Source of the DNA: a virus
Strand: one strand, 5' to 3'
Length of the DNA stretch: 64,000 nt
IMG/VR virus record: IMGVR_UViG_3300045988_140174
Span: 98,574 to 162,573 of that record
A program made the position numbers and the translations under genes. The notes under the pieces are model-generated. The model was not told the origin of the DNA and searched no databases. It saw only the letters and a list, made by a program, of their open reading frames with translations. This document shows positions 21,664 through 25,539 of the stretch, piece after piece (the first letter of the stretch is position 1; each line of letters starts with the position of its first letter).

Positions 21664-22491
21664 ATGGGTTGTCGTAATACCTAGCGTTATCTTGTTGATG
21701 AAGAAAATTATAAAAAGCCAAGCCCAGACAATATAAATACTACAGAGCCTTGGAAAGCGTATGATTAGAATGCCCTAAACAAAGAAACTAAAATTTAGGC
21801 AGAATATTTTCAAGATTTTTTCCGACGATTAAATTAGATTAAATAGTTCCATTTAGCTTATGATGATAATATATATTAGAAAAATAAACTAACTGAAGAT
21901 TATACTATTTATGCTAAAGATATTGAAAAAGATAAAAAAATTTCTAAGGATTTATTATAGTGGAAAGATACAAATACTGATAATATTTATACAGCGATTG
22001 ATAATTTAGTAAATTATATACCTTACTTACAATCAGCTGTAAAAAATGGCCAAAAAAACAAAACTTATGAGCTAAATCCTTCTGACTACCACAATTTATC
22101 TGCATTAAATGCAGGCCCAATTGGAAATGTTCCTCATGAAAATTTACATGTAGATAAGGATTTATTTATTAATAATGAACAATATAATATTATTAGTGAA
22201 AATATAAATTATTTAGAAAAAGTATGTGCCCATAACTCTGATAATTCAAATAATGGTAATTATGGAGATAATTCTAATGAGTCTTCTGGAGGAGGAGGTT
22301 CCTCTGGCAATAGTAATTGTTCTCCGGTTTTTGGAGGAGATAGTAGTACAAACAGCTGTGCAAATCCTGCTGGATGCGTTAATTGTGGAAAAGATAGTTC
22401 AGGACCATGTACTTATAATGGAAGTGGTGGAACTACACCCGCAAATACAAATAATACTTTTTCAGTAAAATATGATTATACACCGAATTAA
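21664..22491 (+). CDS. Gly/Ser/Asn-rich protein with C-terminal Cys-rich segment (6 TAG codons); candidate radical SAM substrate
   Basis: Frame 1 from ATG 21664 to TAA 22489. C-terminus NCSPVFGGDSSTNSCANPAGCVNCGKDSSGPCTYNGSGG (5-6 Cys in ~45 aa, SCIFF-like spacing). Radical SAM gene follows 17 nt later. Confidence 0.45.
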
Positions 22492-22507
22492 AGGAGATTT
22501 TTAATTT

Positions 22508-23908
22508 ATGGCAGTTAATACTATTTGTTTATTAGCATCTTCTTAGTGTAATTTAAAATGTAAATTTTGTTTTTTACATAAAGATAAAGTATTAAATACT
22601 TATAATTAGCAAATTATTCAAGCTTGGTCTAATAAAACTTATATTAAAAATGTAGAAGCTTCTTTAAAAAAACTAGGAGAGTCTACTAAAAATATTTTTG
22701 AAATTGAATTTTGGGGTGGAGAAACATTATTAAATATTTCAATAATTACTGAAAATGTCCCTCTAATAATAAAAACATTTCCTAATTTGTCAAAAATTAT
22801 GTTTTCAACAAATTGGACTATTAATGTTGAAAATTATTTTAATTTTTTAAAAGAATTAAATACTTATGCTAATCATCCAATAGAAGTAATAACACAATTA
22901 TCTATTGATGGACCTCCTGGTAAAATTAGTGCAGAAGGACATGATGGATGGGATTATTATCGAGAAAATTTAAAAAAATTCGCTAATTTAATTAATAATA
23001 CTAAATTAAAAAATATAAAAGTTAAATTTTTAATTAATTCAACAGTGGATAAAGAAATGTATTTAAAAGAATTTAGTACTTATGATGGCATTAAAAATTT
23101 TATGAAATATATGTCAAATTTTGTAGCTGAATTAGAAGAATTATGTATTAGTGAATCATTATCGACAGAATGTATAGGTACTATGGTATTTCCTGGGTAT
23201 TCTTTACCTGCTAGTAGTACAGTTGAAGATGGATTAGAATTAGCAAAAATTATTAGATTATGGGAATACGTTCGAGCAAATGAATTCCCCGAATTTGAAA
23301 AATCATTTTCTTATCATTTAGATTTTCCTTTTGGCATTGCTCATTTTTACATTATAAATAGATATACAGACGCTAACTTAGAATGTAATGAATAGAATAT
23401 TTCAATGACATTTTTACCTGATGGTACTCAAGTGGAATGTAGTTCTTCATATATTGAAGGGAATAAAGATTATCAGTAGGAATGCCTTGATATGGGAGAT
23501 AAAAAACGATATTATTCTAGCGTAATCCATGGTTCACATTCTATCAATCCTTTATCAGCTTCTCAAGAAGAAATAGACACTTATAATTGGGCTGTTCGAA
23601 CTGGTATTAGAAATACTCAATCTACTTATTTACATTTTGCTGTTGAAACTTGTAAAGAATTAGCTTTAGCTGGATAGATTCCTAAAAAATATTATTATGA
23701 TACTGATTTATTGATTAAACATTTAAAAGTAATAATGGGAGCAAATAATTGCACTCGTGAAAATGTAAATGTTACTTTAAATCCTTTTTTAACAAATATT
23801 TCAACTTATCGAGAATATCTTAATGGAGTAGCTGAATATATTTATGATAATAGAAAATTATAGATTTTATTAATGGAGCATTTAAATAATGGGACGAGAA
23901 ACATATAA
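22508..23908 (+). CDS. radical SAM enzyme, paralog of 105-1541 (4 TAG codons)
   Basis: Frame 2 from ATG 22508 to TAA 23906; ORFs 22787-23395 and 23492-23677 share it. CNLKCKFC (Cx3Cx2C), FWGGETLL, QLSIDGPPGK shared with gene at 105. Confidence 0.65.
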
Positions 23909-25265
23909 AGAATAGAATAATCGACTTGCAAAATCAATTTTAGAACGAACTTATTATGAGCCTTTTCGCAAAGGAGAAAAAGAATTAGAAATATTTTTAT
24001 TAGGAAAATGTTCTGCTCAATGCGAATATTGCTATTTATCAAAACATTCTGATGAATTATATCCTAAAGAGCTTTCATCAAATTATGATTTATTATTAAA
24101 AAATTTAAAAATTTTAATGAATTGGTATGTAAAAAATAATTTTAAATGTAGAATTAGTATTTTTAGTGCTGAATGGTTAGATAAAAATGATTTTCGAGAT
24201 AAAGTATTTGATATTTTAGATAAAGCATTTGAAAATACTACTAATTATCCTTTATATATTTTAATTCCTAGTAATATGCAATTTATTAAAGATGAAAAAG
24301 CTACAGCTTCAATCCAAAAATATATTGATTTATTTAAAGAAAAATATAATATTCCTATTTGCATTTCTGCTAGTATTGATGGTAAATATTGTGATAATTT
24401 TAGAACTCCTGTAGAAGATAGTTTTTATACTAATTTATTTACATTTTTAGAGAATAATAAATTTTATTGTCATCCAATGGTTAGTTCTTCTAATATTAAA
24501 TATTGGATTGATAATTATACTTGGTTCAGAGAAACTGCTCCTTTTAATATAGGACAAAGATTAATGATGCTAGAAGTTCGAGATGAAACTTGGAATAATA
24601 CTAACATTAATGAATTTTTAACATTTTTAGAATTTGTCATTAATTATCAATTTGATAATGATTTTCATAAAAATAAAAAAGAATTTTTAAAATATATTTT
24701 GTGTTTACCAAATACAATTATTAAAAATTATCCTAATTATTTAAATATAGGATTAGGACCTTGTAATGATTTTGTTAAAAATTCTAATACTATAAATTGT
24801 AATGTAGCAAATTGGAGTTTAAATATTCGACTTGGAGATTTTTCTCTTATTCCTTGTCATCGTCAAAGTTATGAAGAATTAATTTTAGGGCAATATCAAT
24901 TAAATGAAAATAATGAAATTACAAATTTCCAAGTAAAAAATATTGAATTAATGATTGCTTATAATCATTTAAAACATGATTGTTTTCCACATTGTGAAAG
25001 TTGTAAATATATTGGATGTTGTATAGGATTTTGTTTAGGTAATTCTTATGAAAATTATAAAAATCCTTTTATTCCTGTAAAAGAAGTTTGTAAATTATAT
25101 AAATCTAAAATTAAATTTTTGATTTATACTTATGATCAAATGGGATTATTTGATTATTTAGACGAAATCCAAGATATTTCTTTAGATTTTAAAAAATATT
25201 TAACAGATTTAATTTTAGATACTCGAATGGAAATGGAGCAAAAGATACATGAATCTATAGAATAA
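23889..25265 (+). CDS. radical SAM / SPASM-domain enzyme (anSME-like), 1 TAG
   Basis: ATG 23889 overlaps the upstream gene by 20 nt. CSAQCEYC (Cx3Cx2C) and C-terminal CHRQ...HCESCKYIGCCIGFC SPASM cluster. TAA stop. Confidence 0.7.
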
Positions 25266-25272
25266 TAAAAAT

Positions 25273-25539
25273 ATGTTTTTTAATTTAAGAACTTTATATC
25301 ATTCTATAGATGATATAGAAGATATTCAAATTATTAAACAATATTTGAAATATTTAGAAACAACAGATTATAATAATAATAATATTTATGATATTATTAA
25401 TTATGAGAAATTAATTTATATTTTTGTAAATTTTCAAGATAATGAAGAAATAATGAATAGTTTAGAAATTATTTTTAATAAAATCGCAAATAATTATAAT
25501 GTAAAACGAAAATTAAGAGAACATTTAATTTTACATTAA
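25273..25539 (+). CDS. small acidic protein, paralog of 2739-3107
   Basis: 88-aa ORF; shared motif YEK.IYI.V.F.DNEEI. Confidence 0.5.
   Translation: MFFNLRTLYHSIDDIEDIQIIKQYLKYLETTDYNNNNIYDIINYEKLIYIFVNFQDNEEIMNSLEIIFNKIANNYNVKRKLREHLILH

Follow-up and report, generated by a model that had tools for sequence, protein, structure and literature searches.

The window, i.e., the whole stretch of 64,000 nucleotides that was analysed (positions 98,574 to 162,573 of the IMG/VR virus record IMGVR_UViG_3300045988_140174), harbours two copies of a four-gene cassette, T-A-B-C, which so far is known nearly exclusively from contigs of phages and metagenomes. As judged from the open-access literature, the cassette is previously undescribed; no earlier description of a phage radical SAM cassette was found there. 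By analogy with other systems, we consider it rather probable that the cassette serves the maturation of a protein, the enzymes A and B performing a leader-guided radical cross-linking of the tail of T. T is most likely the substrate, an assignment based on gene linkage and on its analogy with leader/core systems.

Module 2 and its genetic code

Module 2 consists of T2 (21664-22491), A2 (22508-23908), B2 (23889-25265) and C2 (25273-25539), all on the plus strand. These four open reading frames had been predicted before and are indeed present and tightly packed, provided that TAG stands for an amino acid. T2 and A2 are separated by 16 nt, A2 and B2 overlap by 20 nt, and B2 is followed by C2 after 7 nt; a hidden precursor gene therefore finds no space. 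A promoter-like site on the same strand (21614-21642; TTTACA, a 17-nt spacer and a TG-extended TATAAT) matches the consensus, and its function is deduced from this match only. Ahead of it lies a terminator-like hairpin (21523-21546), and a ribosome-binding site (AAAGGAGGT, 21651-21659) follows. Given these signals of its own, the region 21614-25539 can be inferred to be a self-contained transcription unit.

The surroundings of module 2 in the window are a tRNA and auxiliary-gene island, not a tail module. The island is rich in tRNA genes and also contains additional radical SAM genes, an FkbM methyltransferase and GT8/GT2 glycosyltransferases. One of the radical SAM genes (15480-16760) is unrelated to A and B; it reaches 27 bits with the HxsC model, the cutoff of which is 268. 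A papain-family peptidase is encoded at 14675-15478, and another one lies directly upstream of T in locus L001.

Read with the standard bacterial code (table 11), the genes of the module fall into fragments: T2 contains seven in-frame TAG codons, A2 six and B2 one; A1, the A gene of module 1 (105-1541), contains six. TAG is the sole type of internal stop, while the genes end with TAA or TGA. Since table 11 breaks the genes and every internal stop is TAG, the reading frames hold only if TAG encodes an amino acid. Translation of T2, A2, B2, A1, B1 and C1 needs a suppressor tRNA, and one with the anticodon CTA is encoded at 20053-20126 (plus strand). At one conserved site (codon 390 of A2, codon 403 of A1), 16 of 20 standard-code homologs have Gln opposite TAG; pooled over all TAG sites, the share of Gln is 17.5% versus 3.2% in the background. 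The presence of this tRNA and the alignment of TAG with a conserved Gln support TAG as a sense codon. Internal stops of the TAG type only, a CTA tRNA and the TAG/Gln alignment together are what is expected of genetic code 15, and all three are seen here. The standard-code reading, which fragments the genes, was dropped and TAG was taken as Gln. The host replicon of module 2 is a TAG-to-Gln recoded phage related to huge phages.

The radical SAM proteins and their small partner

Radical SAM enzymes hold their SAM-cleaving [4Fe-4S] cluster by CxxxCxxC within a core that is a partial TIM barrel. This superfamily motif is found in A2 (466 amino acids; CNLKCKFC at residues 14-21), in its paralog A1 (105-1541, plus strand, 478 amino acids; CDLKCSYC) and in B2 (458 amino acids; CSAQCEYC at residues 41-48). 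A1 is 100% identical to the A protein of L009, a near-identical IMG/VR contig. A2 further displays a twitch-like motif, C293-x12-G306-x4-C311, and another conserved cysteine, C415. Throughout the A family, CxxxCxxC, the CX12GX4C motif with C293 and C311, and C415 are invariant; D305 and G306 are nearly so. Pfam matches are weak: A2 scores 26.6 bits with Radical_SAM (cutoff 29.5) and 25 with Fer4_12 (cutoff 22). A twitch domain is a truncated SPASM domain for a single auxiliary cluster, with the CX9-15GX4C hairpin and one or two additional cysteines. The N_Twi_rSAM model, with which the family was tested for such a domain, stays at 25-30 bits where 170 are required. In its C-terminal region, an A model aligns to SPASM/twitch enzymes, the alignments covering 309-323 residues, and the best structural neighbours of A are peptide- or protein-modifying radical SAM/SPASM-twitch enzymes, TigE and ChlB among them. 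TigE acts on repeated short motifs, and so does ChlB, a multiple-cyclophane synthase (PMC9062424; PMC12912966). In NCBIfam, A2 is best matched by thioether maturases (PapB, ScfB-related, QhpD, CcpM), all of them far under their cutoffs. From its motifs, A2 appears to be a radical SAM enzyme with one twitch-type auxiliary-cluster motif; the cluster itself is a prediction.

B2 shows a seven-cysteine SPASM pattern (C304, C323, C369, C372, C378, C382 and C401), which includes the C-terminal CX2CX5CX3C block and is invariant in the 16 sequences of the B family. As the SPASM signature CX9-15GX4C ... CX2CX5CX3C ... C goes with two auxiliary clusters, B2 is predicted to carry two of them. With the SPASM model TIGR04085, B proteins reach 17-23.6 bits where the cutoff is 27; the motif is present, the score being under the threshold. 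A profile search with B retrieved 5WGG/5WHY (E=9.5e-10), the SCIFF maturase CteB, and 8VPO (1.2e-8). The paralog B1 (1541-2758, plus strand, 405 amino acids) ends at 2758 instead of 2725 once TAG is a sense codon. It has kept the SPASM cysteines but lost CxxxCxxC, a motif also absent from its clade (L008, L009, L010 and L044). Lacking this motif, B1 is probably not a SAM-cleaving enzyme. The idea that B is an accessory component missing from some clades was ruled out: L029, L038 and L046 carry B downstream, in the order A-C-T-T-B.

C2 is a small acidic protein of 88 amino acids (13 Asp plus Glu versus 9 Lys plus Arg; alternative start at 25249) without a known family. Its paralog C1 (2739-3107, plus strand) has 122. 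A search for homologs of C2 returned only sequences of 98-100% identity, the identical protein being present on 30 contigs. A profile search of C against the PDB gave no significant match and no detectable fold relatives. Scans of Pfam, PHROG, NCBIfam and PADLOC found no family for T, C or the small upstream protein.

The T proteins

T2, which lies upstream and has the unusual tail, was rightly counted as part of the module. It has 275 amino acids and matches the T-motif HMM with E=4e-4. Residues 1-187 form a helical N-domain, which contains the family motif (YFQDFFRRLNQIK); with VCAHN as the junction, a tail rich in Gly, Ser, Asn and Cys follows (residues 188-275). As compared to expectation from the window's own proteome, the tail contains 15 Gly (4.8 expected), 16 Ser (4.8) and 17 Asn (6.5). 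Five cysteines fall within 31 residues (P ~4e-4, again versus the window's own proteome). The Cys-rich string with which T2 was said to end is there, but it is not the C-terminal end, as 19 residues lie beyond it (TTPANTNNTFSVKYDYTPN). In the subfamily of T2 only C188, C241 and C249 are conserved. The tail is not periodic.

The corresponding protein of module 1, T1, had escaped the original prediction. It is cut by the edge of the window, which retains the C-terminal 30 residues (...CYSCYGCYGCYRRYSSRYGKYAAKNVQIRC, then stop; 1-93, plus strand); complete T1, as seen in L009 (6369-6989), has 206 amino acids. It is rich in Cys and Tyr, and tails of its type consist of period-4 Tyr repeats.

T proteins range from 110 to 470 amino acids. 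Their architecture is a conserved helical N-domain followed by a hypervariable tail of low complexity, in some cases with period-4 or period-5 repeats. A conserved junction, (I/V)-C or (I/L)-P, precedes the tail. Aromatic-x-x-x strings are found in many tails, Y-x-x-x in T1 and L010, F-S-S-N in L005 and L007; in L022, L026 and L059 the tails exceed 250 residues, with at least 20 repeats. Basic tails are not the rule; the majority are acidic or else neutral and polar. Among 50 non-redundant tails, 11 have no cysteine at all, 17 have one or two, and only four have six or more. Tail type tracks the A clade.

The T-motif HMM covers 30 positions of the N-terminal helix. It matched 57 open reading frames: 49 of them have their end at most 700 nt upstream of A, and seven lie just downstream. 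Of 3817 reading frames in all, only 191 (5%) fall into that upstream interval. The E-values are weak (1e-2 to 6e-9) and the model was seeded from reading frames adjacent to A; many of its matches, though, are in non-seed loci. It had zero matches in 52 loci from cellular genomes. A profile search of the N-domain against the PDB gave nothing significant, and the structure model of P0027, which is 95% identical to T2, has a pLDDT of 39, too low for a fold search.

Two lineages in one genome

Module 2 is, as had been proposed, a second, paralogous copy of a unit that comprises two radical SAM-type enzymes along with one small acidic protein. A1 and A2 (105-1541 and 22508-23908) align over their full length with 30% identity (E=5e-68) and share the motifs (L/T)QLSIDGPPG and RENVNVT. 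B1 and B2 are 26% identical (E=9e-26). The similarity of C1 and C2 (2739-3107 and 25273-25539) is weak, 41% over 41 residues (E=9e-7), yet the alignment of the C family agrees with it. The further claim that the module was duplicated and diverged within this genome did not hold. A2 is 60-36% identical to orthologs from other phages, but only 30% to A1. In the A tree, it groups with these orthologs, while A1 groups with L010 (36% identity). The lineages also differ in kind: that of module 1 has a B protein without CxxxCxxC and T tails with period-4 Tyr repeats. Their separate placement in the tree and their different B and T types therefore indicate, at the sequence level, that the modules are old paralogous lineages or separate acquisitions, and not a recent duplication. 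Glycosyltransferases adjoin module 1 and are also found in its near relatives.

Distribution of the cassette

Relatives of A were found in 109 IMG/VR viral stretches; the family numbers 465 clusters at 50% identity (E<=1e-30). The gene order in 69 viral loci was TABC in 22, TAB in 16, ABC in 10, TTABC in five and ABCT in three; the rest include rearranged forms. Only three of these loci (with the orders TA, A and B) lack the pairing of A with B, and neither a protease nor an exporter is a conserved member. The cassette is kept across phages using the standard code and phages recoding TAG or TGA, and in differing neighbourhoods. In divergent clades it is located within tail and baseplate modules; in L003 a YcaO gene adjoins it.

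In 50,697 records of GenBank phages, neither megablast with the module nor tblastn with A2 and two divergent A proteins detected a full-length A. The matches listed from cellular genomes mostly concern the generic N-terminal radical SAM core; among those from binned genomes, an A-B pair occurs on one contig of a Clostridia metagenome-assembled genome (L087).

Relation to known systems

The module had been called SCIFF-like. A SCIFF precursor has about 45 amino acids with six cysteines in its C-terminal part (TIGR03973 family). T2, at 275 amino acids, is matched by no SCIFF precursor model of NCBIfam, the only match in the scan being a chance one to TafF (E=0.025), and the Cys counts given above show that cysteine is not a family feature of the tails. 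The label thus had to be given up. The SCIFF maturase model (ScfB equivalog TIGR03974) gives 32.5 bits with A2 against a cutoff of 425 and does not match B2. CxxxCxxC begins at residue 14 in A and at residue 41 in B, and positions 30-187 of the B profile align to residues 93-258 of 5WGG; as the catalytic core starts this close to the N-terminus, an N-terminal RRE domain has no room in either protein. What the cassette shares with the SCIFF/ranthipeptide systems (CteB, PapB) and QhpD is the radical SAM/SPASM class, the match of the B profile to 5WGG, the Cys-rich tail of T2 and the thioether-forming maturases as top NCBIfam matches of A2. It differs from them by scores 10- to 25-fold under the family cutoffs, by enzymes without RRE, by a substrate that is a protein of 275 amino acids and by cysteines that are not conserved over the T family.

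The poly-cyclopropylglycine synthases TvgB and TigE (substrates TvgA and TigB) are radical SAM/SPASM maturases of RiPPs, but sequence identity is only 13%. T, a protein of 110-470 amino acids rather than a short peptide, does not have TVGG tails, and the cassette is phage-borne, with two radical SAM-type enzymes and C and without oxygenase or transporter. The triceptide maturases ChlB, XyeB and YhhB introduce several aromatic-to-C-beta cross-links at aromatic-X-X motifs (PMC12912966), and precursors with repeating Aro-Xaa-Xaa-Asn are known (PMC9062424). Many T tails (e.g., T1, L010, L005, L007) are aromatic period-4 repeats; the YhhB and XyeB models, however, give 29 bits versus 445 and 13 versus 450, respectively, and the tail of T2 is non-periodic and Cys-rich. 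From anSME the cassette differs by a score of 29.5 bits with the sulfatase_rSAM model (cutoff 349) and by one auxiliary-cluster motif in A instead of two; neither a sulfatase nor a C/S-x-P-x-R motif is present.

In its layout, the antiphage system HXS (HxsA-D) comes close: two radical SAM enzymes and a small partner, HxsD, which binds to HxsC, mature a full-size protein with short tandem repeats (PMC13128918). Four components of this kind are also seen here. HXS, however, is bacterial (99.7% Pseudomonadota) with the gene order D-B-C-A, while T-A-B-C is phage-borne. A2 gives 25.4 bits with the HxsB model (cutoff 370), HxsC is matched by neither A nor B, and T2 has neither a Pfam domain nor an HxS array, unlike HxsA with its HxS repeats and peptidoglycan-binding domain.

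What the cassette may do

The conserved N-domain, the hypervariable tails and the tracking of A clades by tail type are the reasons for which we adopt a leader-and-core logic. The helical N-domain of T2 would be leader-like and recognised by the enzymes; C2 may be an adaptor, by analogy with HxsD binding HxsC. Through reductive cleavage of SAM, A2 with its one twitch-type cluster and B2 with its two SPASM clusters would remove hydrogen atoms from the tail (residues 188-275), which would thereby acquire several covalent cross-links within the molecule. In the Cys-bearing T2 type these would most plausibly be thioethers involving C241 and C249, possibly also C188, C219, C232 and C238. In Cys-poor tails with an aromatic period of four, such as that of T1, carbon-carbon links of the cyclophane type, formed per repeat, would be more likely. 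The end product would be a modified protein, not a small exported peptide. The glycosyltransferases near module 1 allow that the tail may be glycosylated in addition or instead. Where the cassette lies in other phages suggests that T is associated with the tail or the virion surface. That it is a tail-fibre or baseplate protein of the virion, its repeat tails being stitched by the radical SAM pair into rigid, protease-resistant ladders, we propose with considerable reserve.

The T proteins could also be precursors of classical RiPPs. The N-domain would then be a long leader, and the cross-linked tail would be cut at the junction and freed at lysis as a bacteriocin or signal, in the case of T2 as a ranthipeptide- or sactipeptide-like product. 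The leader/core arrangement with its conserved junction, the thioether maturases heading the (far sub-threshold) NCBIfam matches of A2, the papain-family peptidases in L001 and in the window, and the YcaO gene in L003 would fit. A RiPP core of more than 250 residues with at least 20 repeats would, however, be long, and so would be precursors of 110-470 amino acids; protease and exporter are not conserved, and divergent clades have the cassette inside tail and baseplate modules. We thus regard this possibility as unlikely. Still less can be said for a phage counterpart of HXS defence, in which matured T would keep out competing phages (superinfection exclusion), either at the envelope of the host or by acting on DNA that enters. 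The matching architecture (PMC13128918) invites the idea, but homology at the family level is lacking, as the HxsB and HxsC models reveal, and PADLOC yields only generic radical SAM matches of the viperin type. By eye, the N-termini of T (e.g., MGCRNTQRY, MAFSWTE) have no signal peptide, no Pfam domain such as a peptidoglycan-binding one was found in the T proteins scanned, and the majority of the tails are not basic; the odds for such a role are poor.

Phage radical SAM enzymes are also known in DNA hypermodification (PMC8989533). With this precedent and the company of tRNA genes, further radical SAM genes, methyltransferase and glycosyltransferases in the island, the target of A and B might be DNA, tRNA or a glycan, with T as an unrelated structural protein of low complexity that travels along. 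Yet T, A, B and C stay linked in phages that are very divergent, use three genetic codes and place the cassette in unrelated neighbourhoods; the type of tail goes with the clade of A, and no hydroxymethyl-dU kinase or related hypermodification gene was seen among the flanking genes scanned; we consider a target other than T very improbable. The original prediction, a SCIFF-type system with a six-Cys thioether peptide duplicated within the genome, could invoke the five cysteines within 31 residues of the T2 tail and the distant match of B to 5WGG/5WHY. Against it stand the unmatched precursor and maturase models, the size of T2, the few or missing cysteines in most tails and the separate old lineages of A1 and A2. 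It is hardly tenable any more.

Biological meaning

Most of what is known about radical SAM/SPASM maturases comes from peptide natural products of bacteria. The family described here is sizeable, appears to be carried almost entirely by uncultivated phages and is linked to a full-size protein with a tail that ranks among the most variable sequences of the locus. That one genome contains a B protein with CxxxCxxC (module 2) and another without the SAM cluster (module 1) offers a natural comparison of the roles of the enzymes. If the tail of T is cross-linked, as we favour, long repeat tails of proteins would be a new class of substrates, probably with new cross-link chemistries, and phages would invest two iron-sulfur enzymes in maturing one protein of their own. 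The cassette would then also provide a testable handle on unannotated genes of gut and environmental huge phages. Should T moreover belong to the virion, it would be the first phage structural or host-recognition protein to be enzymatically cross-linked by radical chemistry, and the cassette would represent a widespread kind of post-translational machinery in phages, so far unrecognised, whose diversification runs via the sequence of the tail.

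Genetic code and gene structure

Read in the standard bacterial code, the three large genes are all broken (0/3 intact as open reading frames). Translation of the genes of module 2 runs into internal stops, all of which are TAG, and the genes end with TAA or TGA. If TAG is taken as sense, the coding content of the + strand (ORFs of at least 80 aa) rises from 12,006 to 18,017 residues. The window contains 28 tRNA genes, one of them with anticodon CTA (20053-20126); they form an array (7943-27761) that lies entirely on the + strand and includes this TAG suppressor. A tRNA-Gln with a standard anticodon was not found among the 28. 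At one strongly conserved TAG site, codon 390 of A2 and codon 403 of A1, 16 of 20 standard-code phage homologs have Gln, and when all TAG sites are pooled, Gln makes up 17.5% (background 3.2%). Taken together, the TAG-only internal stops, the CTA tRNA and the Gln at aligned homolog sites show that this phage reads TAG as Gln. With this reading, the gene coordinates of the original prediction are correct.

Two paralogous modules

Module 2 comprises a putative substrate, T2 (21664-22491), two rSAM-type enzymes, A2 (22508-23908) and B2 (23889-25265), and a small acidic protein, C2 (25273-25539), all on the + strand. A terminator-like hairpin (21523-21546) lies ahead of a putative extended -10 promoter, which matches the consensus at 11/12 (21614-21642) and is followed by a strong ribosome-binding site; a separate promoter match (12/12) occurs past C2. 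By these signals, module 2 looks like a transcription unit of its own.

The paralogy to module 1 is real. A1 (105-1541) and A2 align over their full length with 30% identity (E=5e-68), B1 (1541-2758) and B2 with 26% (E=9e-26), and C1 (2739-3107) and C2 with 41% across 41 residues (E=9e-7), the last pairing being backed by a family alignment of ten members. Module 1 also has an upstream protein, T1, which had been overlooked: positions 1-93 of the window read in frame 1 ...CYSCYGCYGCYRRYSSRYGKYAAKNVQIRC and then stop. The complete T1, 206 aa, is seen on IMG/VR contig 3300045988_141926 (locus L009), which carries an A protein with 100% identity to A1 and so comes from this phage or one almost identical to it. 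The repeated unit thus consists of four genes, and a second paralogous module with an upstream protein belonging to the system stands as predicted. A duplication within this genome, as had been proposed, is contradicted by the A tree, where A1 and A2 are each nearer to orthologs of other phages than to one another. Further differences between the two lineages concern the catalytic motif of B and the type of T tail.

The enzymes and the small acidic protein

The A proteins have the triad of the SAM cluster at residues 14-21 and three further invariant Cys, two of which form C293-x12-G306-x4-C311, the hairpin motif of SPASM/twitch domains. The predicted structure of A is good (pLDDT 86.9). Closest to it are TigE (18.1), the multiple-cyclophane synthase ChlB (17.7), anSME (17.1), 5WGG of the sactipeptide thioether paper (16.7) and SuiB (14.2). 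Two loci, L036 and L039 (around 5344-8447 and 6027-9130, respectively), carry inserted GIY-YIG-like homing endonuclease genes, both ahead of A and in the A-B interval, together with an upstream remnant of an A N-terminus (56 aa); their intact A has the unusual spacing Cx4Cx2C (CAGANCNYC).

The B proteins show the full SPASM pattern with seven invariant Cys, and their profile matches 5WGG and 8VPO. B2 has retained the SAM triad. In B1 and its clade (L008, L009, L010, L044) the CxxxCxxC motif of the SAM cluster is lost and all seven SPASM Cys are kept, which suggests that B may there have a non-catalytic or electron-transfer role alongside an active A. C is small and acidic, 80-135 aa in near relatives and 150-200 aa in distant clades; a search for family or structure relatives of C detected none.

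The putative substrate

The T proteins start with a conserved domain of about 100-190 residues that has three helical segments: FNxLFxRLExIRxxH in helix 1, LxxLxxS in the second, and PxxGxLI followed by a last helix up to an (I/V)-C or (I/L)-P junction. Past the junction begins a tail of 60 to >250 residues, built from Ser, Asn, Thr, Gly, Asp and aromatics with variable amounts of Cys. Many tails have repeats of period 4, namely Y-x-x-x (T1, L010), F-S-S-N (L005, L007) or Y-D-S-S (L045); others have period 5, e.g., N-G-T-x-S (L022, L026, L059). The tails of T2 and its nearest relatives are without periodicity. Tail type tracks the A clade. The composition of the T2 tail is far off chance when compared with the window's own proteins, and its conserved Cys are C188, C241 and C249. 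The AlphaFold model of a T2 relative (95% identical) shows a helical N-domain and an unstructured tail, at low confidence (pLDDT 39).

The Cys-rich string that had been quoted as the end of T2 is present, but 19 further residues follow it, and the label "SCIFF-like" fails every membership test run. Pfam, PHROG, NCBIfam and PDB yielded no family for T. In nearer clades a small protein of 95-145 aa, without family match, is often encoded directly upstream of T (L007-L014, L019, L021, L031, L005; e.g., L009:5929-6366). T2 has no such neighbor in the window; a tRNA-Ser stands there before the promoter.

Distribution and linkage

A2 has 26 relatives in a set of 5.8 billion proteins, none of them named. 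The A family profile collects 465 clusters at 50% identity (E<=1e-30; 1.84 billion representatives searched) and, on IMG/VR viral contigs, 109 relatives; most of these contigs are 120-220 kb long. GenBank phages contain no full-length family member. In prokaryotic genomes, scanned at one per species, the matches listed mostly reflect the generic N-terminal rSAM core, and the only cellular-genome contig among them with an adjacent A-B pair is CAMVYG010000009.1 (L087). This contig of 20.5 kb is binned in an uncultured Clostridia MAG; it may represent a prophage or a phage contig binned by mistake, and could hint at the host range.

With local HMMs, one for each of the four parts, the gene orders TABC (22 loci), TAB (16), ABC (10), TTABC (5) and ABCT (3) were found, besides rearranged ones, for example A-C-T-T-B. 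Only three loci, of the orders TA, A and B, lack the A-B pair. A short HMM covering the N-terminal helix of T matched 57 ORFs: 49 of them end at most 700 nt upstream of A, and 7 follow shortly downstream of it; of ORFs overall, 5% fall into this upstream stretch. The same HMM had no match in cellular-genome loci. Standard code, TAG recoding and TGA recoding all occur among the cassette loci.

Genomic surroundings

In divergent clades the cassette is located at the end of the tail module, flanked by tape measure, tail and baseplate proteins (Baseplate_J, Gp10_C, Mu gp48, wedge), tail lysozyme, collagen-like fibres and laminin-G domains, then holin and endolysin. In the window and near relatives it lies within an island that is very rich in AT and uses TAG heavily. 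Island genes have a GC content of 14-29% and 1.2-2.5 TAG per 100 codons; at 29-45 kb the genes are at 35-46% GC with almost no TAG. The composition splits sharply at 28500, with 1.29 TAG per 100 codons overall in 1-28500 and 0.25 in 28500-64000. A horizontally acquired island could explain the split, as could a class of genes that needs the suppressor tRNA for translation. An 830-aa protein without in-frame TAG (30758-33250) shares about 41% identity with proteins from uncultured huge phages (LR756500, LR756501, LR756503; 462-735 kb), and on this basis the window's phage belongs near the clades of huge phages.

Besides the cassette, the island holds the tRNA array, more rSAM genes, an FkbM methyltransferase and GT8/GT2 glycosyltransferases. 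Module 1 sits inside a larger set of modifying enzymes (3025-4461, 4465-6003, 5996-7135, 7137-7862; L009:3727-5870). Upstream, as visible in L009, are an FkbM methyltransferase and a 317-aa rSAM protein; downstream are another rSAM gene and glycosyltransferases matching GT8 at 4465-6003 (weakly) and 7137-7862, 5996-7135 being GT8-like by eye only, without a Pfam hit. An rSAM-GT2 fusion and GT8 adjoin the cassettes of L005 and L007. T tails rich in Ser, Thr, Asn and Tyr may also be glycosylated. A stand-alone rSAM gene (15480-16760; 426 aa, CNLNCLNC) adjoins a papain-family peptidase (14675-15478), and a similar peptidase is found immediately 5' of T in L001. The phage also carries a full-length gene of the sodium:dicarboxylate symporter family (13211-14386; Pfam SDF, E=5e-87), probably as an auxiliary metabolic gene; a Na/sulfate-type symporter lies close to the cassette of L005. 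On the 224-kb TAG-recoded scaffold of L003, a YcaO-domain protein of 584 aa (L003:13002-14756, - strand) directly downstream of the cassette is a hint of additional chemistry on the peptide backbone in some phages.

Proposed function

Maturation of a ribosomal product by rSAM/SPASM enzymes is a known kind of system. We found no match in curated libraries or the searchable literature for the T-A-B-C cassette as such, for families T and C, for a twitch-type enzyme paired with a SPASM-type one, for repeat substrates of protein size or for the near-exclusive distribution on phage and metagenome contigs.

A conserved N-domain, a hypervariable tail and tightly linked enzymes most likely reflect the logic of leader-guided maturation: T would be the substrate and its tail the site of modification by the linked rSAM/SPASM-class enzymes. 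That this class can act repeatedly along short tandem motifs has precedents in TvgB, which modifies every TVGG repeat (PMC9062424), and in ChlB-type enzymes, which install multiple cyclophanes at aromatic-X-X motifs (PMC12912966). The HXS system adds a third precedent, a full-size repeat protein that is matured by two rSAM enzymes and a small partner (PMC13128918). The fold search did not separate thioether from carbon-carbon chemistry. Because of the conserved C188, C241 and C249, thioether links would be a first guess for the T2 tail; in T1, whose aromatic repeats have no Cys, carbon-carbon links would be the likelier type.

What the modified protein does for the phage can be read in several ways. 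The tail could possibly be released as a peptide, or T could act as an exclusion factor. The position of the cassette in the tail module of other phages favours T as a virion-associated protein.
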